Below, piece by piece: positions 8,211-43,081 of a DNA stretch of 64,000 nucleotides. The first letter of the stretch is position 1. Each line of letters opens with the position of its first letter. This DNA comes from Candidatus Deferrimicrobiaceae bacterium (GTDB lineage Bacteria; Desulfobacterota; Deferrimicrobia; Deferrimicrobiales; Deferrimicrobiaceae). The notes under the pieces were generated by a model. That model was not told where the DNA came from, made no database searches, and saw only the letters and a program-made list of their open reading frames with translations. The DNA lies in assembly GCA_963792415.1 (NCBI GenBank), contig CAWBVY010000007.1, positions 96,001-160,000 on the forward strand. Direction: 5' to 3'. Both the position numbers and the translations under genes were made by a program.

Positions 8211-9194
<984 letters not shown>

Positions 9195-10445: not shown

Positions 10446-10469
10446 CAAAGGATACGCAGTTCGCACCGG

Positions 10470-10504: not shown

Positions 10505-10542
10505 GTGCGGCATTTTCATATCGATTAGATTGGGGAGGAAAG

Positions 10543-11031: not shown

Positions 11032-11050
11032 TATCGGAGGGAGATCAACC

Positions 11051-21078: not shown

Positions 21079-21178
21079 GCATCCTCCGATCCGGTTGCAA
21101 TGTTAAAGCGAACGATTGTCGACAACCAATTATAAGGAGGTGCCGGGCGGCGGCGCAACGGAAAAGATCGACGGCCGT

Positions 21179-22036: not shown

Positions 22037-22042
22037 CGGACC

Positions 22043-22831
22043 TTATCTCCCCTCGTTGTCGTGCAGGTGCCCGTGTCCGTCCGCGTGGGAGTGGCGGAAC
22101 AGGTGGGCGTCGGCCCCGTACATCGCGGCCAGGCTCGAAGGGGTGAGCACCTCCGTGGTCGCGCCGCTGCATACGAGGCGACGATTCAGGCAGATCACCC
22201 GGTCGGCGTGGCGCGTCACGACCGACAGGTCGTGGCTCACCAGCAGCAGACTGAAGCGGGAGTCGCGGTGGACCTTGGAGAGGAAGTCGCAGAACTGCTC
22301 TTCCCCGGCGACGTCGACGCCCGAGACCGGCTCGTCGAGCAGCAGGATGTCGGGGGCGTCCCGCAGCGCGAGGGCGAACAGGACCCGCTGGAGCTCGCCG
22401 CCGGAGAGCCGACCCATGGGGCGTTGGAGGAGGTGAGCGACGCCGGCCCGCTCGAGGCTTTCCCGGGCGATCTCCCGGGTGCGGCGGGAGGCGCCGAGGA
22501 AGACGGGGCGGCGCTGGGCGGAGAGCGCGAAGAAGTCGAGCACCGTGATCGGCACGTCCGGATCCAGGGGGAGGCGCTGCGGGACGTACCCGATGCGGGG
22601 GGCGCCTTCGCCGTGCTCCACCGCGCGGCAGAAACGGATTTTTCCCGTGTATGGCACCTGGCCCAGGATCGCGAGGAGCAGGGTGGTCTTTCCCGCGCCG
22701 TTGGGGCCGATCAGGGCGGTGACCTCCCCGCACCGGAGGTCGGCGTCGATCCCCGAAAGGATCTCCACCCCTCCCTTCCGGACGGTCAGGTTGCGGATCT
22801 CGAGCGTGTGGGAATGTTCGCTTGCGGTCAT
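22043..22831 (-). CDS. znuC: Zn/Mn ABC transporter ATPase
   Basis: GPNGAGKT, GYVPQ, LSGGELQR, LLDEP; His-rich C-terminus. Confidence 0.85.
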   Translation of the reverse strand: MTASEHSHTLEIRNLTVRKGGVEILSGIDADLRCGEVTALIGPNGAGKTTLLLAILGQVPYTGKIRFCRAVEHGEGAPRIGYVPQRLPLDPDVPITVLDFFALSAQRRPVFLGASRRTREIARESLERAGVAHLLQRPMGRLSGGELQRVLFALALRDAPDILLLDEPVSGVDVAGEEQFCDFLSKVHRDSRFSLLLVSHDLSVVTRHADRVICLNRRLVCSGATTEVLTPSSLAAMYGADAHLFRHSHADGHGHLHDNEGR

Positions 22832-23712
22832 CGGGCCGACAGCGCCTCCTTGAGCGTGGAAAGGTTCCGCCGCATCGCGTCTTCGTACGCCGTGGTGGCC
22901 GGGGAACCGGTTGCGACGGGTTCCAGCATCCGCACGGGGACCCCCGCCTCCCTCGCCAGCGCCTCGGCGAGCTTGGGGGAGTATTGAGGCTCGGAGAAGA
23001 CCGCCGGGACCTTCCTCTCCCGGATCGTCCGCGCCAGATTCCTGATCTCCCCCGCCGACGGCTCCTGCCCCGGGGCCGTCTCGATCTCCCCGACCACGGT
23101 CAGGTCAAGGTCCCTCGCGAGATAGTCGAAAACGTTATGGAAGGTGACGATGTTCCTCCGCTGGAACGTCTTCGCCGCCGCCTCGAACTCCGCCGCCAGC
23201 GCCGACAGGCGGGAAACGTACGCATCGGCGTTGCGCCGGAAGGTGCCCGCGGCGGCGGGTCGCGCCGCGGAGAGCGCCTTCTCGATCTCCCGCACCTGGA
23301 GGATCGCGTTCCGGGGGGAGACCCAGGTGTGCGGGTTGACGTCCCCGGAACCGTCGTGTCCCCCGCGGATGGGGCGGACCCCGCGCGCGGTTTCCACGAT
23401 CCGGATCCCCGGGTTCGCCCGCCGGACCGGTTCCCCGAGGAACTCCTCCATCCCGAACCCGTTCGCCACGAAGAGATCGGCGGAGGCGATCTTCTTCATG
23501 TCGCCGGGGGTGAGGGCGTAGTCGTGCGGACACCCCATCGATGCGGGGAGCATCGATTCGACGGTGACGCCCGGCGTGTCACCGACCACGTTCCGGGTGA
23601 AGATCTCCATCGGCAGGAAGGAGGTCAGGACGCGCAACGGGTCGCCGGCCCCGGCGGAAGGGGCGGACGCGAGCAGGAAGACGATGGAAAAACCGACGGC
23701 GAGCCGCTGCAC
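22828..23712 (-). CDS. znuA: Zn/Mn ABC transporter substrate-binding protein
   Basis: Signal peptide; CPHDY, NPHTWVSP, TFHNVFDY; GTG start after GAAAGGA. Confidence 0.85.
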   Translation of the reverse strand: MQRLAVGFSIVFLLASAPSAGAGDPLRVLTSFLPMEIFTRNVVGDTPGVTVESMLPASMGCPHDYALTPGDMKKIASADLFVANGFGMEEFLGEPVRRANPGIRIVETARGVRPIRGGHDGSGDVNPHTWVSPRNAILQVREIEKALSAARPAAAGTFRRNADAYVSRLSALAAEFEAAAKTFQRRNIVTFHNVFDYLARDLDLTVVGEIETAPGQEPSAGEIRNLARTIRERKVPAVFSEPQYSPKLAEALAREAGVPVRMLEPVATGSPATTAYEDAMRRNLSTLKEALSAR

Positions 23713-28361: not shown

Positions 28362-29258
28362 ATGCGATCTCCGAGCCGCTTCCGCTTGGTTCTTGCCGGT
28401 CTCGCCGTTTTTACGCTCGCCCTCGCGGCATGGGTCGGCGTGTCGATCCTCACCCTTCCGTCCGTCGCACCCCTTGCGAAGCCGGGCGTTTCGATGACGA
28501 TCACCGTGAAAGACTGGCATCGGAAGGATCACCCTTTCGTGGTCGGGCCGAGGAATCCGCGGTGGACGCCGTACGGGGCGATCCCCGCCGCACTGAAGAA
28601 GGCGGTCGTCGCCTCGGAGGACGCCAACTTCTACAGGCACGAGGGGGTGGACTACGAGGCGATCCGGGAGGCGATCAAGGCCGACTGGCGGAAGGGGAAG
28701 TTCGTCCACGGCGGGAGCACGATCACGCAGCAGCTGGCGAAAAACCTCTTCCTGACCCGGGAGAAGACGTTGATCCGGAAGGTCAAGGAGCTGGTGCTTG
28801 CGCGGCGACTCGACGACGCCTTGTCGAAATCGCGAATCCTCGAGCTGTACCTCAACGTGGTGGAACTCGGGCCGATGGTGTACGGGATCGGCCACGCGGC
28901 GCACTACTACTACGGGAAGCCTCCCTCCGCGATGACCGTGCGGGAGTGCGCGTTCCTCGCCGCGATGCTCCCCGGCCCGAAAATCTACAACCCGTACCGG
29001 AAGATGGACCGGGTGGTGCGGCGGTCCGACCGGATCCTGCGCCGGATGGTCTCCGCGCGGATGATCTCGCGGGAGGAGTACGACGCGGCGATGGCGGAGG
29101 TCCCGAACCTCGAGGGGCTCGCGCGGAAGGTGGAGAAGACGCTCGATACCCCGCCCCCCGAGGAGAATCCCCCCGGGGAGACTTCCGGCGGCGGACCCGC
29201 GATCCTCGAGGAATCGCCGGCTCCCCCGCCGGGGGAGTCCCCGAAAAACATATATTGA
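28362..29258 (+). CDS. Monofunctional peptidoglycan transglycosylase (MtgA-like)
   Basis: SEDANFYRHEGVD, GGSTITQQLAKNLFL, RKVKE, KSRILELYLN GT51 motifs; N-terminal TM helix. Confidence 0.88.
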   Translation: MRSPSRFRLVLAGLAVFTLALAAWVGVSILTLPSVAPLAKPGVSMTITVKDWHRKDHPFVVGPRNPRWTPYGAIPAALKKAVVASEDANFYRHEGVDYEAIREAIKADWRKGKFVHGGSTITQQLAKNLFLTREKTLIRKVKELVLARRLDDALSKSRILELYLNVVELGPMVYGIGHAAHYYYGKPPSAMTVRECAFLAAMLPGPKIYNPYRKMDRVVRRSDRILRRMVSARMISREEYDAAMAEVPNLEGLARKVEKTLDTPPPEENPPGETSGGGPAILEESPAPPPGESPKNIY

Positions 29259-29304
29259 CATCGGTCGATTGATTTATATAATTGTTTCATAGTAGTGAAA
29301 TAAT
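29255..29304 (+). promoter_or_regulatory. sigma70 promoter with overlapping ArsR-type operator
   Basis: TTGACA (29255-29260), 16 bp, TATAAT (29277-29282); inverted repeat ATTGTTTCA-N6-TGAAATAAT (29281-29304). Confidence 0.7.
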
Positions 29305-29337
29305 GAAATAAAGCGCTGGCGACCGAAAGAGGGAAAA

Positions 29338-29685
29338 ATGGAAAAGACGAACGTTTTCGAACTGCATGCGGATCTCTGCAAGACGCTGTCGAACCCGAAG
29401 CGCCTCATGATCCTCGCTCTCCTCGCGAGGAAGGAGATGAGCGTCGGCGAAATCGCGGAGGTCATCTCGGTCCCCCTTTCCAACGTGAGCCAGCACCTGT
29501 CGCTGTTGAAGGCGCAGGGCCTGGTGCACGGGCGAAAGGAGGGGCAGGTCGTCCACTACAACATCACCGATCGCAGGATCATCCAGGCCTGCACGCTCAT
29601 CCGGTCCGTACTGCTGGACAGGATGAAGGAGCGTGGGCAGGTCGCGCAGGAAATCGACCCCCGGTACGTCGTGGCCTCCGCATAG
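29338..29685 (+). CDS. ArsR/SmtB-family repressor
   Basis: KTLSNPKRLMIL, VGEIAE...SNVSQHLSLLK...GRKEGQVVHY. Confidence 0.9.
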   Translation: MEKTNVFELHADLCKTLSNPKRLMILALLARKEMSVGEIAEVISVPLSNVSQHLSLLKAQGLVHGRKEGQVVHYNITDRRIIQACTLIRSVLLDRMKERGQVAQEIDPRYVVASA

Positions 29686-29731
29686 GCGGCCACCGGATCC
29701 CATCCCGAGCGAAGAAGAAGGAGGGAACATC

Positions 29732-29983
29732 ATGGCTCTGGACCTATCGACCCTGAAAGTGGACAAGACGATCGACGCGCGGGCCACCGCCTGCCCCGGA
29801 CCGCTTCTCGATGCCAAGCGGGCCATCGCGGCGATTCCGGTGGGCGGCGTTCTCGAAGTGATGTCCTCCGACGAGGGGACCAAGGAGGACATCCCCCTCT
29901 GGGCGAAGAAGGTGGGGCACGACTTCCTCGGCGACGTCGAGGAGGCCGGCTACTGGCGGCTGTTCGTGAAGCGGGGCAAGTAG
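29732..29983 (+). CDS. TusA/SirA-family sulfur carrier
   Basis: IDARATACPGP (CPxP), DIPLWAKKVGH. Confidence 0.88.
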   Translation: MALDLSTLKVDKTIDARATACPGPLLDAKRAIAAIPVGGVLEVMSSDEGTKEDIPLWAKKVGHDFLGDVEEAGYWRLFVKRGK

Positions 29984-30391
29984 GTGGCCGTGGCCGCGCC
30001 CCTCGGGGGGACCCGTCCGAAGATACTGGTCTTCTCGACGAACAACATCTCCGACCCGGGGATCGACCTGGCGGGGAGTCAGCACATGAACTACTCCCCC
30101 TCCGTCAAGGTAATCAGCGTACCGTGCTCCGCAGGCATCAACCCGAGCTGGGTTCTCCACGCGCTGGAGGCCGGGTTCGACGGGGTCTTCATCGCCGCGG
30201 ACGGGGGCGACTGCGCCTACCTCCCCGACTGCACGACCCGGACCGCCCGGATCGCCGAAAGGGCGCAGGGGATGGTGAAGGAGCGCGGGAAGGACCCGCG
30301 GCGGGTGAAGATGGCCGCGATCTGCTCCGTCTGCTCCGAACCGTTCGTGTCGCACATGCGGCAGTTCACCGAGGCATTGAGCAAACTGTAA
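29984..30391 (+). CDS. MvhD-like iron-sulfur subunit with a non-canonical Cys pattern
   Basis: DLAG...Y...VKVISVPCS...ALEAGFDGVFIAA..GDCAY MvhD pattern; C-terminal ICSVC. Confidence 0.75.
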   Translation: MAVAAPLGGTRPKILVFSTNNISDPGIDLAGSQHMNYSPSVKVISVPCSAGINPSWVLHALEAGFDGVFIAADGGDCAYLPDCTTRTARIAERAQGMVKERGKDPRRVKMAAICSVCSEPFVSHMRQFTEALSKL

Positions 30392-30403
30392 AGCGGAGAT
30401 CTC

Positions 30404-33118
30404 ATGGAGTACGACGTTCTCGTCGTCGGCGGCGGCATCGCCGGGATGGAATCCGGCCTGACCCTGGGCGACATGGGGTACAAGGTTCTTCTCGTGGAGA
30501 AGGAGGTCTCCATCGGGGGGAAGATGATCCTGCTCAGCAAGGTCTTCCCGACCCTGGACTGCTCCAGCTGCATCTCCACCCCGAAGATGGCCGCCACCGC
30601 GCATCACCCCAACCTGACCGTCCTGACCTACAGCGAGGTGGAGGGGATCGTCGGGAAGGAAGACGGCACGTTCGCCGTCCGGCTCCTCAAAAAGCCGACC
30701 TTCGTGGATCCCTCGGCCTGCACCGGCTGCGGGGATTGCGAGCTGGCGTGCACGGTGGCGATCCCCGACAAGTTCAACGCCGGCCTGGTGGCGACGCGGG
30801 CCGCCCACATCGCGTTCCCCCAGGCGGTCCCGAAGAAGGCGGTCATCGAGCGGGCCGGCTCCTCCCCCTGCAACGCCACGTGCCCGGCGGGCGTGAAGGC
30901 GCACGGGTACGTGTCCCTCGTCCGCAGCGGCAAGTACGAGGAGGCGTTCCGACTGCACATGGAGGACGCCCCCCTTCCCGGGGCCTTGAGCCGCGCGTGC
31001 TACGCACCGTGCGAGGGGCAGTGCACCCGGGACGAGGTCGAGGGGAAGGTGCCCATCCGCGGGATCAAGCGGTTCATGGTCGATACCTACTATGAGCGGC
31101 ACCCGGAGCCCGAGTACGGGCCGCCGGAAGCCCGGAACGGGAAAACGGTCGCCGTCGTCGGATCCGGGCCGGCGGGGCTGTCCGCCGCGTATTTCCTCGC
31201 GCGTAGGGGGTACGGCGTCACGGTGTTCGAGGGCGGGCCCGAGGCCGGCGGGATGCTGCGCCACGGCATCCCCCCGTTCCGGCTCCCCAAGGAGCTTGTG
31301 GACCGGGACATCCGGAACGTCACCGCCCTGGGAGTGGAGATCCGGACCGGCACACCCGTCGGGTCCATCGCCTCGCTGAAGAGCCAGGGGTTCGACGCGT
31401 CGTTCCTCGCCCTGGGCACGATGGAAGGGCAGGGGACGGACGTGCCGGGGCGCGAGCTCCCGGGCGTCCTGGAGTCGATGGAGCTGCTGGCGACCGGAAA
31501 CGCCGGCGGGAAGCTGGAATTTTCCGGGAAGCGGGTCGCCGTCATCGGCGGCGGGAACGTGGCGATCGACTCGGCCCGGATGGCTCTGCGGATGGGCGCC
31601 GCGACGGTCGCCATCTACTATCGCAGGAGCCGCGCGGAGATGCCGGCCCACGACTTCGAGGTCCGGTCCGCCCTCGACGAGGGGGTCGAACTCCACGAAC
31701 TCCGGGCCCCGAGCCGGTTCCTCGGGGAGAACGGGAAGCTCGTCGCGGTGGAGTGGCTTTCCATGAAGCTGGGAGAACCCGACGCCAGCGGCCGGCGGCG
31801 ACCGGTCCCCGTCAAGGGGTCCGGCGCCACACGCCCCGCGGACATCGCGGTGCTGGCCGTCGGGCTGAGACCGAGCACCCGCCCGTTCGCGAGCGAACTC
31901 GGATTGAACCGGGACGGGACGATCCAGGCGGATCCCGAGACGCTCGCGACCTCCCTTCCGGACGTCTTCGCCGGCGGGGACGACGTGACCGGCCCCTCCA
32001 TGATCATCGAGGCGATCGCCCAGGGAAAGCGCGCCGCCTTTTATATCGACCGGTACCTGCAGGGGCTTCCCTTGTCCGGGATCCCCTTCGACGCCCGCCT
32101 CACATCGGTGGACGGCAAAGACGTACTCGACCGGGCGGACGTCCCTCCTTCTTCCCGGGCGCCTGCCGTGCCCCGGGAGCTTCCGGCCGCCGGCCGTTCC
32201 CGGTCGATGGAAGAAGTGGAAAAGACGATGACCGAGGAGGAGGCCCGATACAGCGCCGGCCGCTGCCTGGACTGCGGGGTCTGCTCGGAGTGCCACCAGT
32301 GCGTGGCGGCCTGCCCCGCCGGCGCCATCCGCTTCGACATGCGCGAGGAAAGGAAAACGCTCGAGGTCGGCTCCATCCTTGTCGCCACGGGCTTCCAGCT
32401 CTTCGACCCGAAGAGGAAGCCCGAGTACGGTTTCGGGGAGTACCCGAACGTGATCACGGCGATGCAGATGGACCGGATCCTGTCCCCCACCCGGCCGTAC
32501 AACGCCGTCGTGCGCCCCTCCGACGGGATGGCACCGTCGAACATCGCCTTCGTCCTGTGCACCGGCTCCCGCGACTGCACCGTCGACAACCGGCTCTGCT
32601 CCCGGGTCTGCTGCATGTACTCGATCAAGCAGGCCCAGCTCCTCATGGGGGCGTTGCCGCTTGCCGACGTCACCATCTATTACATCGACATCCGGGCCTT
32701 CGGGAAAGGGTACGAGGAGTTCTACGAACAGGCGAAGGGGATGGGGGTGCGCTTCGTGAAGGGGAAGGTGGCGAAGATCGACGAGACCGGGGAGGGGAAC
32801 CTTGTAATGCGGTACGAGGACATCGAAGGCGACGGAGGGATGCAAACGGCGCAGCACGACCTCGTCGTCCTGTCGGTGGGCCTCTCCGCCAACCCCGAGG
32901 CGTTCGGGCTGTTCCCCCCGGGTCTGCTTTCGGCGGACCCGTTCCGGTACGTCCGCGAGGTCGACGAGGACCTCGAGCCGGGGAAGACCAGCATCGACGG
33001 GGTGTTTGTCGCGGGGACGGCCTCCGCGATCCGCGACATCCCCGACACGATTCTTCACTCCGGTGCGGCGGCCACCCAGGTCGCGTCCTTCCTCCAGAGA
33101 AAGCGGGCGGCGCCATGA
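30404..33118 (+). CDS. HdrA-like flavoprotein with an inserted GltD-type NAD(P)H oxidoreductase module (HdrL-like)
   Basis: GGGIAG, KVFPTLDC, ferredoxin CTGCGDCELAC; GltD insert (CPAG...SRACYAPCEGQC, GSGPAG, GGGNVAID, YRRS); CLDCGVCSECHQC; CTGSRD...CSRVCC. Confidence 0.85.
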   Translation: MEYDVLVVGGGIAGMESGLTLGDMGYKVLLVEKEVSIGGKMILLSKVFPTLDCSSCISTPKMAATAHHPNLTVLTYSEVEGIVGKEDGTFAVRLLKKPTFVDPSACTGCGDCELACTVAIPDKFNAGLVATRAAHIAFPQAVPKKAVIERAGSSPCNATCPAGVKAHGYVSLVRSGKYEEAFRLHMEDAPLPGALSRACYAPCEGQCTRDEVEGKVPIRGIKRFMVDTYYERHPEPEYGPPEARNGKTVAVVGSGPAGLSAAYFLARRGYGVTVFEGGPEAGGMLRHGIPPFRLPKELVDRDIRNVTALGVEIRTGTPVGSIASLKSQGFDASFLALGTMEGQGTDVPGRELPGVLESMELLATGNAGGKLEFSGKRVAVIGGGNVAIDSARMALRMGAATVAIYYRRSRAEMPAHDFEVRSALDEGVELHELRAPSRFLGENGKLVAVEWLSMKLGEPDASGRRRPVPVKGSGATRPADIAVLAVGLRPSTRPFASELGLNRDGTIQADPETLATSLPDVFAGGDDVTGPSMIIEAIAQGKRAAFYIDRYLQGLPLSGIPFDARLTSVDGKDVLDRADVPPSSRAPAVPRELPAAGRSRSMEEVEKTMTEEEARYSAGRCLDCGVCSECHQCVAACPAGAIRFDMREERKTLEVGSILVATGFQLFDPKRKPEYGFGEYPNVITAMQMDRILSPTRPYNAVVRPSDGMAPSNIAFVLCTGSRDCTVDNRLCSRVCCMYSIKQAQLLMGALPLADVTIYYIDIRAFGKGYEEFYEQAKGMGVRFVKGKVAKIDETGEGNLVMRYEDIEGDGGMQTAQHDLVVLSVGLSANPEAFGLFPPGLLSADPFRYVREVDEDLEPGKTSIDGVFVAGTASAIRDIPDTILHSGAAATQVASFLQRKRAAP

Positions 33119-34848
33119 GCGGAAAACGGATCGGGGCGTTCATCTGCCACTGCGGCGGGAACATCTCCGACTACGTCGACGAGGAGAAGATCCGCGCCGC
33201 GGCGGAGAAGGAGTCCGGGGTCGCCGTGGCCAGGACGTTCCTCTTCTCCTGCTCGGAAGCTTCCCAGCAGGAGATGGTCCGGATCCTCCAGGAGGAGAAG
33301 CTCGACGGCATCGTGATCGCATCCTGCTCCCCCAAACTGCATCTCACCACCTTCCGCGCCATGGCGCAGCGGGCCGGGCTGAACCCGTACATGTACACCC
33401 AGGTCAACGTCCGGGAGCAATGTTCCTGGGCGCACCGGCACGAGCGGGAAGAGGCCACCGGGAAGGCGATCCACCTCGTGCGGGCCGGGATCGCGCGGAC
33501 CCGGCTCGGCGTGCCGCTGACCGATCTCCGGATCGAGACGACCCCCGCGGCGCTGGTCGTGGGGGCCGGCGTCGCGGGAATGCGCGCGGCCCTGGCGCTC
33601 TCCGACGTCGGCATGGCCGTGTACCTGGTGGAACGGGCCGCGGAGGTCGGTGGGCGGGTTCCTGCGTGGGGACGGATGTTTCCCAACGACCGGGAAGGGG
33701 CGGAGATGATCGGGACCCTGCTCGAGGCGATCCGCAGCCGGGCGGGGATCACTCTCTTCACGGACGCCGAGGTGGTCGGGAAAAGCGGGAGCGTGGGGGA
33801 CTTCTCGGTCACCGTCCGGGTCCGGGGCGTGGAGGAGATCCCGTTGCACGTAGGGGCCATCGTCGTTGCGACGGGGTTCGACCCGTACGCCCCGAAGGAG
33901 GGGGAGTTCGGTTACGGCCTTCCGGGCGTCGTCACGCTGCCGGAGTTCCGCGAGCTTCTTGCCGGCGCGAAAGGGAAGCTCCGGTACGGGGACCGGGAAG
34001 TAAAAACCGTCGTCTACGTCTACTGCGTCGGCAGCCGCCAGGCGGTCACGGAGGGGACCCCCCACCCGAACCTCTACTGTTCGCGGTATTGCTGTACGGC
34101 GGCGGTCCACACCGCCCTCCTGGCCAACGCGGCCGACGGCGGCGTCAACCAGTACCACCTGTATCGCGACATGCGGACCTACGGGAAAAGCGAGATCCTC
34201 TTCGAGGAGGCGGGCAGCAAGGGGTCGGTGTTCGTCCGGTTCCCCGAGGACGCTCCCCCCGTCGTCGAGCGGCAGGACGGCGAGCTGCTCGTCCGGGTCC
34301 GGGACGGCCTTCTCGGCGGCGAGGAGATCGGGATCCCGGCGGACCTCGTGGTCCTGGTCACGGGGATGGTGCCCCGGGAGAACGCGACTCTCGCGAACGT
34401 GCTGAAGCTCCCGGTGGACGCCGGCGGTTTCTACAACGAAATCCACCCGAAACTGCGCCCCGTGGAAACGCTGATCGACGGCGTCTTCATTTCGGGGACG
34501 GCCCAGGGGCCCAAGACGCTCGCGGAGAGCGTGGCCTCGTCCCTGGCGGCGGTCTCCAAGGGGGCGGCGCTCCTCCTCAAAGGGTACGTCGATCTTCCCC
34601 CCCTCGTCGCGAAGGTCGACACGGAACGGTGCACCTGGTGCGGGGAGTGCGAAAATACGTGCCCCTACGACGGGGCGGTCGGGAAGGTGCGGCTGGGAGA
34701 GAAGGAGGTCGCCTACGTCCACCCCGCGCTTTGCAAGGGGTGCGGCGGGTGCGTCCCCGTGTGCCCCGTGGAGGCGATCGACCTGGAGGGGTGCACCAAC
34801 GCCCAGGTGAAGGCGATGATCGACGCGCTGGTCCGGGAGGCGGGGTGA
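33115..34848 (+). CDS. Second HdrA/QmoB-like flavoprotein
   Basis: CHCGGNI...ASCSP...REQCSW N-terminal cluster, GAGVAG, CVGSR...CSRYCC, HPKLRPVET, C-terminal 2x[4Fe-4S]. Confidence 0.85.
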   Translation: MSGKRIGAFICHCGGNISDYVDEEKIRAAAEKESGVAVARTFLFSCSEASQQEMVRILQEEKLDGIVIASCSPKLHLTTFRAMAQRAGLNPYMYTQVNVREQCSWAHRHEREEATGKAIHLVRAGIARTRLGVPLTDLRIETTPAALVVGAGVAGMRAALALSDVGMAVYLVERAAEVGGRVPAWGRMFPNDREGAEMIGTLLEAIRSRAGITLFTDAEVVGKSGSVGDFSVTVRVRGVEEIPLHVGAIVVATGFDPYAPKEGEFGYGLPGVVTLPEFRELLAGAKGKLRYGDREVKTVVYVYCVGSRQAVTEGTPHPNLYCSRYCCTAAVHTALLANAADGGVNQYHLYRDMRTYGKSEILFEEAGSKGSVFVRFPEDAPPVVERQDGELLVRVRDGLLGGEEIGIPADLVVLVTGMVPRENATLANVLKLPVDAGGFYNEIHPKLRPVETLIDGVFISGTAQGPKTLAESVASSLAAVSKGAALLLKGYVDLPPLVAKVDTERCTWCGECENTCPYDGAVGKVRLGEKEVAYVHPALCKGCGGCVPVCPVEAIDLEGCTNAQVKAMIDALVREAG

Positions 34849-35090
34849 TGGCGGGCGAACCGAGACGGGATCCTTCCGAGGTGATGCGGGACGAGATGCT
34901 CGTGAGGGGGAAGATCGCGTCTCTCCTCCGCGAGGGTCCCAGGACCATCCCGGAGATCGCGGACGCCCTGCGTTGCCCGGCCCGGGAGGTGACGCTCTGG
35001 GTGATGGCCCTTCGGCGATACGGCGCCCTCGAGGAGATCCCGAAGCCGAAGGCGGACGATTACTACCGGTACAGGCTGGCGAAGGAGTAG
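34848..35090 (+). CDS. Small winged-helix-like protein in the Hdr operon
   Basis: TGATG coupling to upstream gene; LREGPRTIPEIADAL...VTLWVMALRRYG...YRY HTH-like pattern. Confidence 0.6.
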   Translation: MAGEPRRDPSEVMRDEMLVRGKIASLLREGPRTIPEIADALRCPAREVTLWVMALRRYGALEEIPKPKADDYYRYRLAKE

Positions 35091-35100
35091 AGGGGGCGAG

Positions 35101-36234
35101 ATGGGCGTTCGGGTAACACCGGGGTTGTACAGGGAAGTCGCGAAGTTCGGCGGCGGAGACGTCACGGCGTGCATGAACTGCGGCAGCTGCACGGCCGTCT
35201 GTTCCCAGGTCCAGGAGGCGGGGGGGTTCCCCCGCCGGATCATCCATCTCCTGCAGGTCGGGCACAGGGGGAAGCTCGCCGGATCGCTCGAACCGTGGCT
35301 CTGCTACTATTGCGGGGAATGCTCCGACACCTGCCCCCGGGGTGCGAACCCCGCCGAGACCATGATGGCCGCCCGTCGGTACCTCACGGGGATGTACGAC
35401 TGGACGGGGCTGGGGAGGAAGTTCTACACCTCCCCGGCGTGGGAGATCGGGGCGGTCGCCCTGGTCGGCCTCTTCGTCGTCGCCCTCTTCGCCCTCTTCC
35501 ACGGTCCCGTGGTAACGGACCACGTGGCGCTCAACACCTTCGCTCCCGTGGAATGGATCGAGATCGGCGACTGGATCCTGGGCGGCATCCTGGTCACCCT
35601 CCTTCTCTCCAACGGGTGGCGGATGTCCCGCTGGGTGATGGGCGCGGGGAAGGGGGGCGACGTCCCCTTTTCGCTGTACCTGCGCAAGCTGCCCGCGTTT
35701 TTCGAGCACTTCGCGACGCAGAAGAAGTGGCGGGAGTGCGAAGGACCGAACACCCGGTGGCTCAAGCATTTCCTCCTGGTCACCGGGTACGTCACGATGA
35801 TGGTCCTCGTCATCGTCTTTCTCCGGTGGTTCCAGACCGACGAGATCGTCCCCTTCTATCGCCCGACCCGCCTGCTGGGGTACTACGCCACCGCCGCCCT
35901 TCTGTACGTGACCGGGGACTTCCTCCTGGGGCGCCTGCGCAAACGGGACAACATCCATAAATTCTCCGAGCCCACCGACTGGGTGTTCCTGGTCCTGCTG
36001 TTCCTGGTGGCGCTCACCGGGATCCTGGTCCACGTGTTCCGTCTCTCGGGCCTTCCGCTCGCGACGTATTCCACGTACGTGGTGCACATGGCCATCGTGG
36101 TGCCGATGCTGGTCGTCGAGGTGCCCTTCGGCAAGTGGGGACACATGTTCTACCGGCCTTTCGCCGCTTACCTTGCCGCCGTAATGCAGGGGGCGGCGGA
36201 TGCCGCCGCAAGGGAAACGGAACGCGCCGCCTGA
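35101..36234 (+). CDS. QmoC-like membrane protein (2x[4Fe-4S] plus b-heme transmembrane domain)
   Basis: CMNCGSCTAVC, CYYCGECSDTCP; about six TM helices with His candidates (LKHF, LVHV, VHMA, KWGHMFYRP). Confidence 0.8.
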   Translation: MGVRVTPGLYREVAKFGGGDVTACMNCGSCTAVCSQVQEAGGFPRRIIHLLQVGHRGKLAGSLEPWLCYYCGECSDTCPRGANPAETMMAARRYLTGMYDWTGLGRKFYTSPAWEIGAVALVGLFVVALFALFHGPVVTDHVALNTFAPVEWIEIGDWILGGILVTLLLSNGWRMSRWVMGAGKGGDVPFSLYLRKLPAFFEHFATQKKWRECEGPNTRWLKHFLLVTGYVTMMVLVIVFLRWFQTDEIVPFYRPTRLLGYYATAALLYVTGDFLLGRLRKRDNIHKFSEPTDWVFLVLLFLVALTGILVHVFRLSGLPLATYSTYVVHMAIVVPMLVVEVPFGKWGHMFYRPFAAYLAAVMQGAADAAARETERAA

Positions 36235-36298
36235 GGCCGGCGCGCGTTCCGGGGGAATCGCATGCCGTCGTTCCACACATTCCACAAGGAGGGTTGAA

Positions 36299-36673
36299 AT
36301 GGCAGAGACAAAGGAAGAGAAGATCGTCGTCATCGGCACGCACGGCGGGGAGGATCCGGATCGGGCGACCTTGCCGTTCGTGGTCGCGAACGCCGCGCTG
36401 GCCATGGACGTCAAGACCACCGTCATCCTCCAGGGGAACGCGGTGACGCTGGCGGTGAAGGGGGCCGGCGAGAACGTCCAGGGGATCGGTTTCCCCCCCC
36501 TGAAGGAGCTGATCGCGAACTATTTCGCCCAGGGGGGGCAGATCCTCCTCTGCACGCCCTGCATCAAGGGGCGGAACATCGCCCCGGAGACGCTGGTCGC
36601 CAGCGCGTCCCTGATCGCCGCCGCCCGGGTCGTCCAGGAGTGCCTCGAGGCGAAGGCCGTCCTGAACTACTGA
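36299..36673 (+). CDS. DsrE/DsrF-family sulfur-relay protein
   Basis: THGGEDPDRATLPFVVANAALAM, LLCTPCIKGR. Confidence 0.82.
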   Translation: MAETKEEKIVVIGTHGGEDPDRATLPFVVANAALAMDVKTTVILQGNAVTLAVKGAGENVQGIGFPPLKELIANYFAQGGQILLCTPCIKGRNIAPETLVASASLIAAARVVQECLEAKAVLNY

Positions 36674-36728
36674 CGTCCCCCTGATGGGGTCCGTCCTGGT
36701 CTCACGGGAAAAGGGACGGAAAGCGGTG

Positions 36729-36770
36729 CGGTAACGGGGAGCTCCCTCTGCGGGCCGCTCCCCGTTACCG
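36729..36770 (+). terminator. Hairpin ending the Hdr/Qmo-like operon
   Basis: 14-bp stem CGGTAACGGGGAGC / GCTCCCCGTTACCG. Confidence 0.55.
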
Positions 36771-36861
36771 GGAAAGACGGCGTCCGGTCAGGTGCGGGTA
36801 CCCTTTTGCCCTTGCATTCATATATATTGATATAGGCAGGCAAGGAACGGGGAGGAAGGGA

Positions 36862-38112
36862 ATGCGCGCTGTTCTTCCAGCGGTATTGCGGGCAACCCTT
36901 CTCTCCTTCCTGCTTATTTCTTCGGTTGCGATCCTCTATGCGACGGTGATGAACGAGCGCACGGTGGAATCCCTCGCCGACCTGTCGCTGGAGAGCACCG
37001 CCCTCGCCCTGTCCACCGCGACGGAAAGCGCCCTGCGTGCCGACGGGGACGGGACAGACAGCGAGGTCCGGGGAATCCTCTCGGACCGGGTGGTGGCGTA
37101 CGCGCTGATCGCGGAGAGGGACGGGGTGATCCGGTTCCACACCAACCCCAGGATGGCGGGAACCCGATTGCCGGAGGCCCCCGGGGGATGGGTCAGCGCC
37201 GGCCAGCCTTCCGGCCGGAGAGTGGTCCTTGGGACCGGTTTGCCGGCGTACGAGTACGACTACATCCTCCACCCCCTCGACGGCGGCCCGGAACTGCTCC
37301 GGATCGTGCTCCACACGACGCCCGCGGACCGGATCCTCGCCGGCATGCGGAGGATGCGCTGGACGGTGGCGGCCGTGCTGCTCCTCCTCTGGGCGGTCGG
37401 CGTCGCCCTCGAGCGGATGGTGTCACGGCAGTTCCGCCTGCAAGCGGAGACCGAGCGGCGGGACACCCTCGCCCTGATCGGACAGATGACCGCGACCCTC
37501 GCGCATGAAATCCGCAACGCCCTCGGCAGCGTCAAGGGGTACACCCAATGGGTGAGCGAGAAGGTCGATCCCTCCGATCCGAGGAAGGCGGGGCTGGAAA
37601 GTGCGCTGCGGGCGGCGGGCCGGATCGAGTCCCTCGTCAACGAGCTCCTCCTGTTTTCGCGCCAGGAAACGTACGTGACTGCCCCCGTCCCCCTCCTCGA
37701 CATCGTCCGGGACACGGTGACCGCGGAGTCTGCAGGATGGGCCGGGAACGTGGAAATTTCCGCCGAGCCCGGGGCATGCGCGGTGGCCGACCCCGAAAAA
37801 CTGGGGAGGGTGCTGCGGAACGGGGTCCGGAACGCGATCGAGGCGATGGGGCCGGAAGGGACCTTGCGGGTGGAGGGCGTGATGGACGGCAGGTGGGCGG
37901 AAATCCGGGTGGTGGACTCCGGACCGGGCATTCCCGGAGAGGAACTTCCGAAGCTGTTCACGCCGTTCCACACGACGAAGGCGGACGGCACCGGGCTCGG
38001 GCTGGCCTACTCGAAGAAGGCGATCGAGGGGATGGGCGGTCGCATCGGGATCCGCAATCGGGCTGAGGGGAACGGAGCGGTCCTGTGGGTCCGTCTCCCC
38101 GGGAAGGGGTGA
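36862..38112 (+). CDS. Membrane sensor histidine kinase (ZraS/NtrB-like)
   Basis: Two TM helices around a periplasmic domain; H-box LAHEIRNAL, RNAIEA, DSGPGI, FTPFHTTK, GTGLGL. Confidence 0.9.
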   Translation: MRAVLPAVLRATLLSFLLISSVAILYATVMNERTVESLADLSLESTALALSTATESALRADGDGTDSEVRGILSDRVVAYALIAERDGVIRFHTNPRMAGTRLPEAPGGWVSAGQPSGRRVVLGTGLPAYEYDYILHPLDGGPELLRIVLHTTPADRILAGMRRMRWTVAAVLLLLWAVGVALERMVSRQFRLQAETERRDTLALIGQMTATLAHEIRNALGSVKGYTQWVSEKVDPSDPRKAGLESALRAAGRIESLVNELLLFSRQETYVTAPVPLLDIVRDTVTAESAGWAGNVEISAEPGACAVADPEKLGRVLRNGVRNAIEAMGPEGTLRVEGVMDGRWAEIRVVDSGPGIPGEELPKLFTPFHTTKADGTGLGLAYSKKAIEGMGGRIGIRNRAEGNGAVLWVRLPGKG

Positions 38113-39649: not shown

Positions 39650-40150
39650 ATGAAGACGAAGCTCGGTGCGACGGTTCTGGCGGCTGCTTTCCTTGCCGCG
39701 CTCGTCATACCAGGGACGGTCCTGGCGGGTGGCGGCGGGGGTGGCGGCAAGGGCGGCGGCGGTGCGGCCAACATGGGAGGGCAGTCCATCCGGACACAGA
39801 CCCAGACCTTGATGCGGAACCAGAGTCAGAACCAGAACCAGATGAAGTATCAGGGCCAGACCGGCGGTATGAAACAGAATCGCCTGGGGGACGCGCAAGG
39901 GGACCTGGACCGGACGCGCGCGCAGGATCGGGACCGGGATCAGGATCGTGACCGGGACCGGATCCACAAGGTGTCCGGCACGGGGCCCGCGGCGGCTACC
40001 GCGGAATCTGCGGCGGTGAGCGCCACCAGTGACAGGTCGGGGAAAGGAAACATGGGCGGTAATCTTTACGGTCCTGGCGACGGAACGGGGAATGCAGGTA
40101 TCGGCCCCGCGGACGGAACGGGATATGGGCCTGGGGAAAAAATCAAGTAG
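39650..40150 (+). CDS. Secreted low-complexity protein (Gly-rich, Q-x-Q and (D/Q)RDRD repeats, GDGTG motifs)
   Basis: AAGGAGG RBS; signal peptide; QTQTQ/NQSQNQNQ, QDRDRDQDRDRDR, YGPGDGTG...GPADGTGYGPG. Confidence 0.75.
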   Translation: MKTKLGATVLAAAFLAALVIPGTVLAGGGGGGGKGGGGAANMGGQSIRTQTQTLMRNQSQNQNQMKYQGQTGGMKQNRLGDAQGDLDRTRAQDRDRDQDRDRDRIHKVSGTGPAAATAESAAVSATSDRSGKGNMGGNLYGPGDGTGNAGIGPADGTGYGPGEKIK

Positions 40151-40154
40151 GGCG

Positions 40155-40709
40155 GTGAAAACCGGGCGCGGCAGGGCGGCGTTGTCCGCCCTGCTCCCCG
40201 GTTTTCTCTGCGTCCTGTTCCTCCTCCCCGCGGGCGGTGCCGCGCTGGCGGCCGGGGACGGGACGGCTCTGGAAGGGAGCGGGATCCTCTACCCCGGGGG
40301 ATTCGACCCGAACACGGTCGGGGAAGTGCGTGGAACGGCTCGTGGCGTCGACAAGCCGGAGCGGGGGCCGATCCGCTTCCGGCTGGATTCGGGGAAGGAG
40401 ACGTACACGGTCTTCGCCTCCCCGTCGTGGTATTGGGAGGACCTCCGGACGGAGATCCCCGAGGGCGCGGAGGTGAGCGTCCGCGGTTCCAAGACGCTCG
40501 GCCGCGACATGAGGATGTACATCATCGCCCAGGAGATCCGCGTCCTGCCCGCGGGACGGTCGTGGACGTTCCGGGAGCCGGACGGGTTCCCTCTCTGGAA
40601 AGGCGGCCGGGGAGGGGCGGGGATCGGAGTGGGCGGAGGGTCCGGATCACCGATGTTCCGGGGCGGCCCCGGCAGGGGGTCCGGCGGTGGAGGCGGGAAG
40701 GGCAGGTGA
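40155..40709 (+). CDS. Periplasmic OB-fold protein (resembles the MamS/MamX-like OB domain)
   Basis: Signal peptide; FDPNTV..V.G...TVFASPSWYW...G..V.VRGSK...IIAQEI...FREPDGFPLW. Confidence 0.55.
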   Translation: MKTGRGRAALSALLPGFLCVLFLLPAGGAALAAGDGTALEGSGILYPGGFDPNTVGEVRGTARGVDKPERGPIRFRLDSGKETYTVFASPSWYWEDLRTEIPEGAEVSVRGSKTLGRDMRMYIIAQEIRVLPAGRSWTFREPDGFPLWKGGRGGAGIGVGGGSGSPMFRGGPGRGSGGGGGKGR

Positions 40710-40737
40710 CGCCCGCGGGCGGGGAAAAGGGGGGGCC

Positions 40738-41613
40738 ATGGTGCAATGCACGATCCGGTTGCTGTTGCCCGTCATCTTTGCGGTCTTTCTGCTGTGGGGT
40801 GTGACGCCTGCGGGAGCCGGATGGGAGGCGGGGGCGAAGGGGGGGTACGACTCCAACCTGAGCCGGTCCATCGACGACGAGGAAGGGAGCGCGTACCTGT
40901 CGGTGCAGGGCGGATACGTGAAGGGCCACTCCGGGGAATCCCGGACGGACTGGACGATGGGGTTCTTCCTCGAAGGGGCCTTCTACCCCTCCATAGAGGA
41001 CATCGACTACGCTTCGGCGACGTTTTCCCCGGGCCTGGCGTACATCTTCCGCCCGGGATGGACGGGGGCGGTCACGCCGTTCCTGCAGGGGAAGGTGGTC
41101 CAGGATTCGGACCAGTCCGCCCTCGCGTTCGGGGTGAGGGTGGATTTCCTGCAGAAACCCGGGGGAAGGGCCTACCTCGGCGAATATTACGCCTACACGG
41201 ACAGCCGCGCCAGCAACGACGTCTACTCGTACAGGGAGAACGCCGTGGGGGCGTACCTCGGGATGCGCTGGTCCCCGGGATTCTTCACCGAGGTGGGGTA
41301 CGAATTCTCCCGGGGAGACTCGTTCCTGTCCGTCAAGGTCCCCGCGCCCCCGACGGGGGGCGGAGGAGCGGGGGGTCGTGGAGCGGGGTACGGAGGAGGG
41401 ATGCCGCAATATTCGAAGGCGTTCGATTCCATCGTGTTCAAGGAACAGGTTGACTCCCATTCCGTGCCGGTCACGGTCGGCTTCGACTGGACGCCACGGT
41501 GGTTTTCGAGCGTGAACTACACGTACAGGTCGTGGTCCGCAGAATCGGTGAAGGCGACCGACCATTCCGGGTATGCGGGAATCGGGTACCGATTCGGACT
41601 TCCTGATCGATGA
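40738..41613 (+). CDS. Outer-membrane beta-barrel protein
   Basis: Signal peptide; GYDSNL start motif; alternating aromatic beta-strands; near-terminal YAGIGYRF beta-signal. Confidence 0.7.
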   Translation: MVQCTIRLLLPVIFAVFLLWGVTPAGAGWEAGAKGGYDSNLSRSIDDEEGSAYLSVQGGYVKGHSGESRTDWTMGFFLEGAFYPSIEDIDYASATFSPGLAYIFRPGWTGAVTPFLQGKVVQDSDQSALAFGVRVDFLQKPGGRAYLGEYYAYTDSRASNDVYSYRENAVGAYLGMRWSPGFFTEVGYEFSRGDSFLSVKVPAPPTGGGGAGGRGAGYGGGMPQYSKAFDSIVFKEQVDSHSVPVTVGFDWTPRWFSSVNYTYRSWSAESVKATDHSGYAGIGYRFGLPDR

Positions 41614-41731: not shown

Positions 41732-43081
41732 ATGAGGAAGTTCGCTTTTGGAATGGGCCTTCTGGTATTTTCAGCAACGCTGTCGGCCCAAGCCTACGCT
41801 GCGGGATCTTCCCACGCCGATTACGTCAAGAAGTACGAGGGCACTGCCACCTGCACCGCCGCATCCTGTCATGAAGGGGCTGCGAAAGAGGTGGCGGAGA
41901 GCCTGCACTACCAGCAGCGCGCGGTCCCGCAGTTTCTGGAGGGCTGGGAGGCAGGCAAATTTGCGGGAATGATGGAATCGTATTGAGCGCCGCCCAACAC
42001 GGTGGTGGGGCATAACTGGATCGGGATCCTCCAACCCAGGGATGCCTCGAAGCCGGCGCAGCCAGGTGGCTGCGTACAATGTCACGCGGGACTCGGCGCC
42101 AAGCCCAACCCGGTCGGGAAGCTGACGGAGGCGGATTACAACAACATCGATTGCCTTCTTTGCCACGTTCCAGGGTACAAGCGGACGGTGGTCAAGGAGG
42201 GGGACAGGTTCCGGATCGCGCCGGACCCGTCCATCGATGTCCTGAAAGCGGCGCAATCGGTCCAAAAACCCACGAATGAGACATGCCTCCGGTGCCACGC
42301 GGCGGCCGGCGGCGGGCCCAACCACAAGCACGGCGTCATCCCGACGAAAGACAGCGACGTCCACGTTGCGAATGGGATGCAGTGCCTCGATTGCCATATT
42401 GCCAGGAATCACAAGATCGCCGGGGGTTCCGACCTCAAGGCCCAGGAACTCCTCGACGTCAAGGTCGCCTGCGAGAACTGCCACTCCACCCCTCACAAGG
42501 GGGGGAAGGCGAAGATCCTGGACCGGCATGCGGTCCGGATCGCCTGCCAGACGTGCCACATCCCGGCGATCGCCCGGGACCCCAAGATGCCCACGGCGGT
42601 TGAGCGCGACTGGACGAAACCCGTGCTCAACGAGAAGACCGGGCTCTACGGGCCGACCAGCAAGATGGCCGGGAACCTCCGTCCCGAGTACGCATGGTGG
42701 AACCGTTTCATGAAGGTTCCGCCGGAGCCGGCGGGTTCCATCGCCGATCCGAAATCGAAGATCTATCCCTGGAAGCGGACGGAGTACACGGTCATCGCGG
42801 ATGCGGCGACCGGCAAGCCGATCTACATCAAGTCGGGTGTTTACGCCATCACCGGCGACCCCGGGGCTGCGGCGAAGAAGGGGGCGGAGGACGGGAAGCA
42901 GGAGTACAGCGGCAACTGGAAAGGTGTCAAGGAAACGATGGTGTTTTCCATGAACCATCAGGTCGCACCGAAGGGCGAGGCCCTGAAGTGCAAGTCCTGC
43001 CATTCCTCGAAGGGCGTGCTCGATTTCAAGAAGTTGGGGTACGACGAGGAAAAGACCGGGAAACTGAGCGGCGGTTACTAA
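41732..43081 (+). CDS. Periplasmic octaheme cytochrome c, tetrathionate reductase (Otr)-like; probable selenoprotein (in-frame UGA at codon 85)
   Basis: ORFs 41573-41986 and 42002-43081 share one frame; signal peptide; CTAASCH plus 7 CxxCH; Otr-like motifs IDCLLCH, GGG..HKHG, DVH, ACQTCHIP..AR, SKIYP.K, NHQVAPK..AL.C..CH; SECIS-like hairpin after the TGA. Confidence 0.8.
41992..42011 (+). promoter_or_regulatory. Candidate bacterial SECIS element
   Basis: GCCC-AA-CAC-[GGUG]-GUG-GGGC hairpin just 3' of the UGA; 4-nt apical loop starting GGU, 17 nt from the U of UGA. Confidence 0.6.

Follow-up and report, generated by a model that had tools for sequence, protein, structure and literature searches.

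A recurrent Qmo/HdrA-family gene cluster tied to the sulfur carriers TusA and DsrE in a Deferrimicrobiaceae bacterium

Which redox partner would be served by a Qmo-like membrane complex whose genes lie among those of sulfur carriers rather than beside those of adenosine 5'-phosphosulfate (APS) reductase? The question is raised by an eight-gene operon in a 64,000-nucleotide (nt) stretch of DNA from a Candidatus Deferrimicrobiaceae bacterium (assembly GCA_963792415.1, contig CAWBVY010000007.1, positions 96,001 to 160,000), which we call the window and whose numbering is used throughout unless another contig or locus is named. The tightly packed genes, all on the + strand, encode an ArsR regulator, TusA, an MvhD-like protein, HdrA-type flavoproteins of 904 and 577 amino acids (aa), an 80-aa winged-helix protein, a QmoC-like membrane anchor and DsrE, with families assigned by Pfam and NCBIfam profiles. 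Judged by its sequence, the operon is neither a canonical Qmo nor an sHdr system and is a distinct, recurrent Qmo/HdrA-family variant tied to sulfur carriers. We propose, giving the idea an even chance of being right, that it encodes a membrane-attached Qmo/HdrA-type hub through which sulfane sulfur carried on TusA and DsrE would exchange electrons with menaquinone and NAD(P)(H). A first-pass annotation of this DNA had named seven of the eight genes, including an anchor with iron–sulfur (FeS) clusters and haem b, and the domain profiles agree with all seven; the winged-helix open reading frame (ORF) at 34848–35090 had been missed. The same annotation held that the operon contains no HdrB (CCG domain), aprAB or hydrogenase, and none is found among its proteins.

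The anchor (377 aa; 35101–36234, + strand) joins an HdrC-like 2×[4Fe-4S] domain to a haem-b-type membrane domain and has 5–6 hydrophobic segments. It aligns along its full length with the qmoC equivalog model NF038018 (model positions 6–357) but reaches only 180 bits against a cut-off of 300. In genomes that carry both kinds of protein, canonical QmoC scores 386–488 bits and the QmoC-like copies 176–201 bits. In 95 QmoC-like and 17 canonical sequences, eight FeS cysteines are kept, together with His223, His329 and His348; these cysteines and haem-ligand histidines are those of a QmoC-type subunit, and haem binding is predicted. Trees of the anchor (67 rows under LG+G4 and 44 rows under LG+C20, midpoint root only) were computed after removing repeated loci, fragments below 330 aa, near-identical Deferrimicrobium sequences and all but 12 (then 7) of 42 CCG-fused proteins. 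Canonical QmoC (17 rows in the larger tree, 12 in the smaller) is split from the QmoC-like rows with a Shimodaira–Hasegawa-like approximate likelihood-ratio test (SH-aLRT) support of 100 on both sides, and the window protein lies outside the clade of Apr-linked canonical QmoC.

The two flavoproteins were both recorded in the first-pass annotation as HdrA-type, which holds, but the first is more than that: it is an HdrL-type fusion. This protein (904 aa; 30404–33118, + strand) has a QmoA/HdrA-like FAD domain and a ferredoxin domain interrupted by an NfnB/GltD-like NAD(P)H-FAD-2×[4Fe-4S] module of ~460 aa (about residues 162–621). The insert is evidenced by a PRK12771 match of 499 bits over residues 141–643 with HdrA matches on both sides, by the alignment of NfnA, NfnB, NfnI-alpha and GltD chains from the PDB to residues 153–633, and by the separation of the ferredoxin Cys motifs to residues 106–116 and 627–637. 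An inserted NfnB/GltD module beside mvhD marks the HdrL class, and here mvhD ends 12 nt upstream. HdrL lacks the N-terminal and C-terminal domains of HdrA and retains the inserted ferredoxin domain. The second flavoprotein, HdrA2 (QmoB/HdrA-like, 577 aa; 33115–34848, + strand), consists of N-terminal FeS, FAD and C-terminal 2×[4Fe-4S] ferredoxin domains; it matches positions 1–231 of the HdrA2 model, positions 322–653 of the HdrA model and the PDB chains 5odc_A and 7bkb_A. An inserted ferredoxin domain is missing, as is any fused MvhD, and the protein ends after its C-terminal ferredoxin domain.

The domains of HdrL and HdrA2 appear complementary, as expected of a heterodimer. In the accessible part of Chadwick 2022 (PMC9012536), Cys197 of the thioredoxin-reductase domain is described as ligating the N-terminal cluster of the partner HdrA in HdrABC-MvhAGD, and tandem HdrA genes with complementary domains of this kind are expected to form heterodimers. 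The presumably corresponding FPTLDCxxC motif is found in HdrL and in 15/15 type A orthologues (type A denotes the gene order of the window) and in 0/13 Apr-linked QmoA proteins, while its counterpart in HdrA2 is FPNDREG, with no Cys. In reciprocal blastp searches, QmoA proteins score 178–242 bits against the HdrL core and at most 79 against HdrA2, and QmoB proteins score 81–203 bits against HdrA2. This pairing lets the operon be read as MvhD, a QmoA-like protein with an insert, a QmoB-like protein without its MvhD tail and a QmoC-like protein, so that paired QmoA-like and QmoB-like HdrA paralogues sit beside a qmoC-like gene. The 15 rows whose neighbouring HdrL/QmoA-like gene bears the insert form a single clade in the 44-row anchor tree (SH-aLRT 96), and TusA-linked rows occur at five places in the QmoC-like clade, its deepest branches included.

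The flavoproteins and anchor are bracketed by two small sulfur carriers. TusA (83 aa; 29732–29983, + strand; PF01206, 76 bits) has a Cys21-Pro-Gly-Pro motif that conforms to the Cys-Pro-x-Pro pattern and whose four residues (C21, P22, G23, P24) are invariant in 16/16 aligned sequences. The DsrE-family protein (124 aa; 36299–36673, + strand; PF02635, 58 bits) carries a CTPC motif with Cys85, which aligns with a Cys in 14/14 DsrE-family sequences, the window's included; by residue number and not by alignment, Cys85 is near Cys84 of HdDsrE3C as that protein is numbered in the accessible portion of the published text. Each of the two is the single tblastn match of its family in the source genome. 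Between TusA and HdrL lies the MvhD/FlpD-like FeS protein (135 aa; 29984–30391, + strand; PF02662, 104 bits), whose GTG start directly follows the TusA stop codon and whose Cys77, Cys114 and Cys117 are invariant in 16/16 sequences. A complex prediction for MvhD, HdrA2 and TusA, made with alignments and scored on TusA, gave 0.00 against a mark of 0.32, a value that counts neither way on binding. In the IMG database, the cluster at L017:9172–9531 has its DsrE-family carrier named 'predicted peroxiredoxin', its TusA 'tRNA 2-thiouridine synthesizing protein A' and its anchor 'QmoC'.

The link to the carriers recurs well beyond this genome. At least 590 relatives were found, and 79 loci among them were taken for synteny classes; the 79 QmoC copies assessed (a fragment, L018, stands outside the classes) comprise 17 of type A with TusA, 11 of type A order whose upstream DNA is too short, 42 that are HdrD-fused and 9 others, mostly cut by contig ends. 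TusA is present in 17/17 type A loci with at least 5.4 kb of upstream DNA and in three further type A loci from the window's phylum (L110, L111 and L121), hence in 20/20. A DsrE-family gene is likewise present in 20/20, being seen in 14 of the 17 by tblastn, in L017, L040 and L061 by Pfam, and in all three further loci. The expectation of the first-pass annotation that TusA and DsrE are conserved neighbours is thereby borne out wherever the flank suffices. Across the same 17 loci, the winged-helix ORF occurs in 15 (tblastn) and ArsR in 11, whereas the QmoA-like protein is an insert-bearing HdrL in 9 and insert-less in 8. The type A record titles name Deferrimicrobiaceae, Gemmatimonadales, Phycisphaerae, Planctomycetota/Thermoguttaceae, Verrucomicrobia and Krumholzibacteriota. 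On these comparisons of sequence, we regard the gene arrangement as conserved far beyond chance.

Some of these loci carry further sulfur genes. In L040 the order is rhodanese, ArsR, DsrE2-like, TusA, MvhD, HdrL, HdrA2, winged helix, QmoC-like, type III sulfide:quinone oxidoreductase (SQR), DsrC/TusE and DsrE2-like; the SQR scores 640 bits (cut-off 525), DsrC/TusE 92 bits, and the two DsrE2-like proteins 62 and 118 bits (cut-off 210). The extra genes of L121 encode a DsrE2-like protein and a 623-aa protein like CoA-disulfide reductase (CoADR). The distribution of the cluster is patchy: among the sampled genomes from the phylum of genome G157, 4/151 match at E <= 1e-40, G157 included, and two of the four clearly belong to the QmoC-like clade, with 100% and 58% identity. 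The closest operon relatives among the matches listed are metagenome-assembled contigs labelled Candidatus Deferrimicrobium or Deferrimicrobiaceae, with 87–95% identity in the QmoC-like protein.

The source genome (2.84 Mb in 11 contigs, completeness 100%, contamination 0.32%, G+C ~68%) offers few of the usual partners. Our genome-wide negatives cover all contigs except a 72-kb stretch, C6:792001–864000. Within that scope, no aprA exceeds its cut-off (best 20.9 bits against 641.75), the profile search finds no dsrA, tblastn returns no match to AprA, AprB, Sat, DsrC or DsrE2, and neither a [NiFe] hydrogenase large subunit nor a type III SQR is found. The operon holds the genome's only HdrA-type genes (tblastn). 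In five other genomes with the TusA-linked order, of unreported completeness, neither dsrA nor aprA exceeds its cut-off (0/5). The source genome has a CoADR+rhodanese homologue at C8:81710–83428 and a CCG protein at C1:148562–149713. At G000:C1:146447–149758 (L003), a 693-aa frame combines a membrane part weakly matching QmoC 222–325 with an HdrD-like CCG part 31% identical to the L051 fusion described below, and is a second membrane-bound Hdr-like protein of the genome.

How does the operon compare with known systems? Canonical QmoABC ('type I', of sulfate reducers and Chlorobi) shares with it two HdrA-like flavoproteins and an HdrC-like/haem-b-type membrane subunit in the order A-B-C. The QmoC proteins, however, are only 25–32% identical and fall in separate clades, the window lacks aprBA and sat, and MvhD, which in QmoABC is a C-terminal domain on QmoB, is here a separate gene. 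The window adds the NfnB-like insert, the HdrA-type FPTxDCxxC Cys, TusA, DsrE, ArsR and the winged-helix ORF. With the sHdr-LbpA system, as laid out in the accessible part of Tanabe 2024 (PMC11094781), it shares the linkage of an Hdr-family complex to TusA, DsrE-type carriers and rhodanese; its TusA and DsrE-type sulfur transferases are linked as in sHdr, and its DsrE is DsrE3-sized (124 aa) with a conserved Cys. As described there, sHdr differs in being soluble, in having HdrB1/B2 with CCG domains, HdrC1/C2 and a short HdrA, in needing the lipoate-binding protein LbpA, and in having no QmoC, MvhD or NfnB module. No CCG domain (PF02754) of the kind that marks HdrB1 and HdrB2 is matched in the eight operon proteins, and no lipoate-binding protein gene is among the eight genes, no genome search having been aimed at LbpA.

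HdrL of Desulfobacterium autotrophicum, in the accessible text of Strittmatter 2009 (PMC2702500), has a similar ~500-aa NfnB/GltD-like insertion in the HdrA ferredoxin domain and lies beside mvhD, and the HdrA-NfnB fusions HdrA9-11 of ANME-1, as given in part of Chadwick 2022 (PMC9012536), have a matching architecture. NAD(P)H is the carrier proposed for such fusions in the accessible portions of the two papers (PMC2702500, PMC9012536). In these sources, as far as their accessible text goes, the clusters have dsrABC, fdh or hdrBC as partners and QmoC and TusA are not mentioned with them; the strings 'qmoc' and 'tusa' occur zero times in PMC9012536. The window proteins differ further in having no selenocysteine. 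The methanogen HdrABC-MvhAGD complex (PDB 5odc and others) is similar in its HdrA domain set, its MvhD and its presumed electron paths, but it contains MvhAG, which the window does not, and it combines a homodimeric HdrA with HdrBC and free ferredoxin, whereas the window has two complementary paralogues, a QmoC-like subunit and a fused NfnB module. The searchable literature yielded no description of a TusA-MvhD-HdrA-HdrA-QmoC-DsrE cluster; its coverage takes in neither the 2021 review by Appel et al. nor some of the supplementary figures of Neukirchen et al., and one supplement of Neukirchen 2023, in its accessible part, contains 'TusA' zero times.

The same core is found with other partner modules. 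Within the QmoC-like clade, L086 and L114-L118 group together (SH-aLRT 100) and share the order QmoA, QmoB(MvhD), QmoC. Two of these loci were scanned: directly upstream of the L117 genes lie sat, aprB and aprA (906 bits), and downstream of the L116 genes lies sat. Their QmoC is in the window's clade and 42–47% identical to the window protein, and that of L086 (194.6 bits) is, like the window's, below the NCBI qmoC cut-off; in contrast to the window, MvhD is fused to QmoB, neither TusA nor DsrE is present, and the first Cys of FPTxDCxxC, which the window QmoA-like protein keeps, is lost in 3/3. 'Type II' Qmo, occurring with or without Dsr/Apr, is termed functionally unclear in the accessible part of Neukirchen et al. 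2023 (PMC10504309), and these loci are probably of that type.

A second arrangement, type B, occurs in Desulfobacterales and their kin, where a single protein joins the QmoC-like part to a second ferredoxin domain and a pair of CCG domains (HdrD-like); a 1151-aa HdrL, MvhD and an FrhB-like protein come next. At L051:7980–15247 (also L023-L082, about 41 loci) the fused open frame is 769–793 aa with an FrhB/FdhB-like FeS protein downstream, the 1151-aa HdrL comprises the N-terminal domain, NfnB insert and C-terminal ferredoxin, and in L033 the fused QmoC-like/HdrD gene is present twice in tandem. Type B ('HdrF'-type in Strittmatter's naming) resembles the window in a QmoC-like protein 50–57% identical, an HdrL with a matching insert and MvhD, and differs in having the thiol/disulfide catalytic CCG domain and no TusA or DsrE. 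Finally, L119:2084–8095 and L120:6998–14271 have a QmoC-like gene beside a fused HdrL-like/HdrA2-like frame of 1410–1504 aa, then MvhD, which in L120 is followed by a VhuG-like hydrogenase small subunit; they look like a form of the core tied to a hydrogenase. The core thus appears to behave as a modular hub with at least four different cytoplasmic partner modules. The first-pass annotation had spoken of a third architecture, which understates this modularity.

These observations can be assembled into a mechanism, with domains mapped onto the methanogen electron paths given in the accessible text of Chadwick 2022 (PMC9012536), where electrons pass from MvhD via the ferredoxin domain at the C terminus on to FAD. 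In our proposal, HdrL (QmoA-like) and HdrA2 (QmoB-like) would form an asymmetric heterodimer. MvhD would dock on the C-terminal ferredoxin domain of HdrA2, feeding that domain and the FAD. The QmoC-like subunit would take the place of HdrBC, carrying electrons from the thioredoxin-reductase-domain cluster through the HdrC-like domain to menaquinone, while the branch that in methanogens leads to free ferredoxin, made up of the N-terminal cluster and the inserted ferredoxin domain, would be wired to the NfnB-like FAD/NAD(P)H site. The redox partner at the MvhD port would be a persulfide borne by TusA/DsrE, with sulfide as its source or as the product of its reduction. We arrive at this partner because neither a hydrogenase nor an APS reductase is available for the MvhD port and because TusA and DsrE are the sole conserved companions. 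The ArsR repressor, bound at a dyad after the promoter, would control expression of the operon. The subunit contacts, the role of TusA and DsrE as substrates, the reaction direction and a respiratory or detoxifying role are all inferred. The first-pass annotation had already coupled NAD(P)H and quinone to protein-bound persulfide; the NfnB/GltD-like module and the conserved Cys, His and transmembrane segments of the QmoC-like protein support the first two, and the persulfide is as conjectural as before.

As to direction, we lean slightly towards oxidation of sulfide/persulfide feeding menaquinone and NAD(P)+, on account of the SQR in the L040 gene string and of the midpoint potentials of the couples concerned. 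These are about -270 mV for S0/HS-, about -74 mV for menaquinone and about -320 mV for NAD(P). With such values, conversion of sulfide to persulfide could drive reduction of menaquinone together with NAD(P)+ (or ferredoxin in the insert-less forms), and the reverse would be uphill.

Several points weigh against the proposed hub. None of the subunits has a recognised persulfide/disulfide catalytic site or a CCG domain, and all conserved Cys of HdrA2 fall in FeS motifs. TusA is the genome's only copy and so may also, or only, serve housekeeping sulfur transfer. NAD(P)H cannot be counted among the core substrates, the module for it being missing from 8/17 type A loci. A search of three genomes, one of the same genus and two of the same family, did not find the operon in any (3/3), so that it is dispensable. 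The partner could also be encoded in the unsearched 72-kb stretch C6:792001–864000. The ArsR Cys pair is off the HlyU Cys position, which makes sulfane-sulfur sensing by this regulator a guess, and the winged-helix ORF is left unexplained.

The alternative that survives best dispenses with the carriers as substrates. The complex would then work by itself as an NAD(P)H:menaquinone oxidoreductase, perhaps with bifurcation to ferredoxin and with a function like that of FixABCX, and TusA and DsrE would be co-regulated passengers that supply sulfur for FeS clusters or cofactors or buffer sulfane stress. The NfnB-like NAD(P)H site of HdrL, the C-terminal ferredoxin domain of HdrA2 and the quinone link of the QmoC-like subunit are what such an enzyme would need, and both the lack of a thiol/disulfide catalytic domain and the single-copy state of TusA fit it. 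However, the eight type A loci without the NAD(P)H module have TusA and a DsrE-family gene all the same, SQR, rhodanese, DsrC and CoADR-like genes join the cluster in other phyla, and the separate MvhD would be left without a partner. We consider this account possible but on the whole unlikely.

Another alternative is a sub-case of the proposed hub with its direction fixed: NAD(P)H, alone or with menaquinol, would reduce carrier-bound persulfide or polysulfide to sulfide, for respiration or sulfane removal. The NfnB/GltD-like module is in its favour, and we take the relatives of this module to include the sulfide dehydrogenase SudA of Pyrococcus. So are the CoADR-like gene in L121, the CoADR+rhodanese homologue in the source genome and the control of the operon by a repressor, as in sulfane-stress regulons. 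Set against these, menaquinol could not drive persulfide reduction at the potentials given above, the SQR in the L040 string would create a futile cycle, and the insert-less variants have no NAD(P)H site. We judge a dedicated reductive system unlikely.

A bolder version of the oxidative direction is sulfide-driven flavin-based electron bifurcation. Oxidation of sulfide at the MvhD port would yield a persulfide on TusA/DsrE, and the HdrA flavin would split the electrons between menaquinone (downhill) and NAD(P)+, or ferredoxin in the eight insert-less forms (uphill), the AprBA-linked and CCG-fused forms then being later specialisations of a carrier-linked ancestor. If this were true, anaerobes could draw low-potential reductant straight from sulfide and dispense with reverse electron transport. 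We hold this version to be rather improbable.

The two remaining alternatives are the familiar systems themselves. An sHdr-type system that oxidises carrier-bound sulfane sulfur to sulfite is suggested by TusA, DsrE and the L040 rhodanese, which together are the accessory set of sHdr in the accessible part of Tanabe 2024 (PMC11094781), but with no HdrB/CCG subunits in the operon, no candidate catalytic site for a four-electron oxidation and no lipoate-binding protein genes among its eight genes (LbpA was not the aim of any genome search), it is very unlikely. That the operon is an ordinary QmoABC serving an APS reductase encoded elsewhere is scarcely credible, for although IMG applies the name 'quinone-modifying oxidoreductase subunit QmoC' to a member of the 90%-identity cluster of the L017 QmoC-like protein and an AprBA-linked QmoABC subclade lies within the QmoC-like clade, in the 100%-complete genome, outside the 72-kb stretch, aprA stays below its cut-off and tblastn gives no AprA, AprB or Sat, the qmoC model gives 180 bits where 300 is the cut-off and canonical proteins reach 386–488, MvhD is unfused, and the QmoA-like protein keeps the HdrA-type Cys that is lost in 13/13 Apr-linked QmoA. 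The first-pass annotation had likewise set the operon apart from a bona fide Qmo with aprAB elsewhere, and this stands, with no aprA or dsrA over cut-off and a QmoC-like protein outside the canonical clade, though its own clade holds the AprBA-linked subclade.

The layout of the locus is that of a single transcription unit, as had been claimed at first pass from a promoter at 29255 and close packing. The intergenic gaps are, in gene order, 46, 0, 12, -4, -1, 10 and 64 nt. A sigma-70-type promoter, TTGACA-16-TATAAT, matches the consensus at 12/12 positions (29255–29282, + strand) and is the sole promoter-like site in 29100–37000, where shuffled sequence gives a mean of 0.5; the TTGACA hexamer aligns in 7/8 upstream regions of related loci and is absent in L017. 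Directly after the -10 hexamer, an imperfect dyad, TTGTTTCA-N6-TGAAATAA, with a tandem TGAAATAA, was read at 29282–29311 (+ strand) and is a candidate ArsR operator, which agrees with the operator placed there earlier; related loci have other AT-rich dyads at the matching place. A hairpin had also been put at 36729, 3' of dsrE, and a GC-rich stem of 13 bp is indeed readable at 36730–36770 (+ strand), but it has no T-run and is not listed by the terminator scan.

The regulator (115 aa; 29338–29685, + strand) belongs to the ArsR/SmtB family (NF033788, 84.7 bits with a cut-off of 55; HTH_5, 49.9 bits). Its Cys14 is kept in 9/9 orthologues and Cys85, and thus the Cys14/Cys85 pair, in 7/9. Assignment to the BigR/SqrR persulfide-sensing type was considered and rejected, the BigR model NF040642 giving 55.8 bits against a cut-off of 155 and the Cys position being different. 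In alignments to HlyU structures from the PDB, the Cys of 'ILCML', which we take to be the sensing-Cys position of the BigR/HlyU group, stands opposite a Cys-less 'ILALL' in the window protein. The winged-helix protein (80 aa; 34848–35090, + strand) overlaps the HdrA2 gene by 1 nt at start and stop and has weak Pfam matches. Its AlphaFold model (mean predicted local distance difference test, pLDDT, 85) is a generic winged helix whose atlas neighbours are small MarR-like proteins, and a fold search with the model returned generic ArsR/SmtB and MarR winged helices at E ~1e-3, with DsrD at rank 35. A role as subunit, adaptor or second regulator is conceivable.

The flanks are unrelated to the operon, with a transglycosylase upstream and a histidine kinase and sigma-54 regulator downstream, none of which is kept beside it in close relatives. 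A multihaem cytochrome c gene (42002–43081) lies 5.3 kb downstream of dsrE. In L008 (2513–3376) a copy 92% identical to it directly follows dsrE, so the intervening kinase, regulator and two unassigned genes are variable; the latter are adjacent ORFs of 226 and 308 aa (40029–41613) between the sigma-54 regulator and the cytochrome, with no Pfam match at E <= 1e-5. Elsewhere the window holds a GntR/FCD regulator followed by POR, POR_N/PFOR_II and TPP_enzyme_C genes (2-oxoacid:ferredoxin oxidoreductase-like) and a TctCBA transporter (5979–12562), a rubrerythrin (20506–21078), a hybrid-cluster protein (Prismane, 564 bits; 47543–49204) and a tRNA-Pro(TGG) at 60190–60266, its sole Rfam/ARAGORN match. 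A 623-aa ORF at 21116–22987 has a G+C of 0.87 at first and 0.72 at third codon positions and may be a low-complexity protein or a non-gene.

Operon DNA is found in sediment, estuary and aquatic metagenomes, with at least half of the sampled words present in 14 runs from 8 studies. Metatranscriptome contigs from 4 runs in 4 studies cover 25–29 of 30 bins at 92–99% identity and low depth, and arsR-tusA-mvhD is spanned by single contigs, as is the junction of hdrL and hdrA2; coverage of the flanks is equal and DNA carry-over is possible, such that these contigs do not prove transcription of the operon. Among the related loci, the labels "Rikenellaceae" (L008) and "Actinomycetota" (L010), on operons of 87–90% identity, are probably binning or labelling errors rather than real hosts. 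Apparent frameshifts, which may be assembly errors, break the matches to HdrL and HdrA2 across several frames in L005:3299–7742, a relative with 95% identity.

What the finding means is clearest for the Qmo family. The coupling of Qmo and quinone to cytoplasmic sulfur chemistry, and bifurcation by Qmo, are unsettled, and this cluster is a natural variant in which two small Cys-bearing carriers, in place of a large enzyme, would be the partner. Because the host organisms have neither Dsr nor Apr and the NAD(P)H module is present in some and missing from others, the coupling could be studied with components as simple as TusA-persulfide, an analogue of menaquinone and either NAD(P)H or ferredoxin. 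There is also a consequence for annotation, in that the name 'QmoC' given by IMG to a close relative may lead pipelines to score sulfate-reduction genes while the carrier link stays hidden. If the proposed hub is real, iron-reducing, Deferrimicrobium-like bacteria of estuarine and other sediments would gain an unrecognised link to the sulfur cycle.

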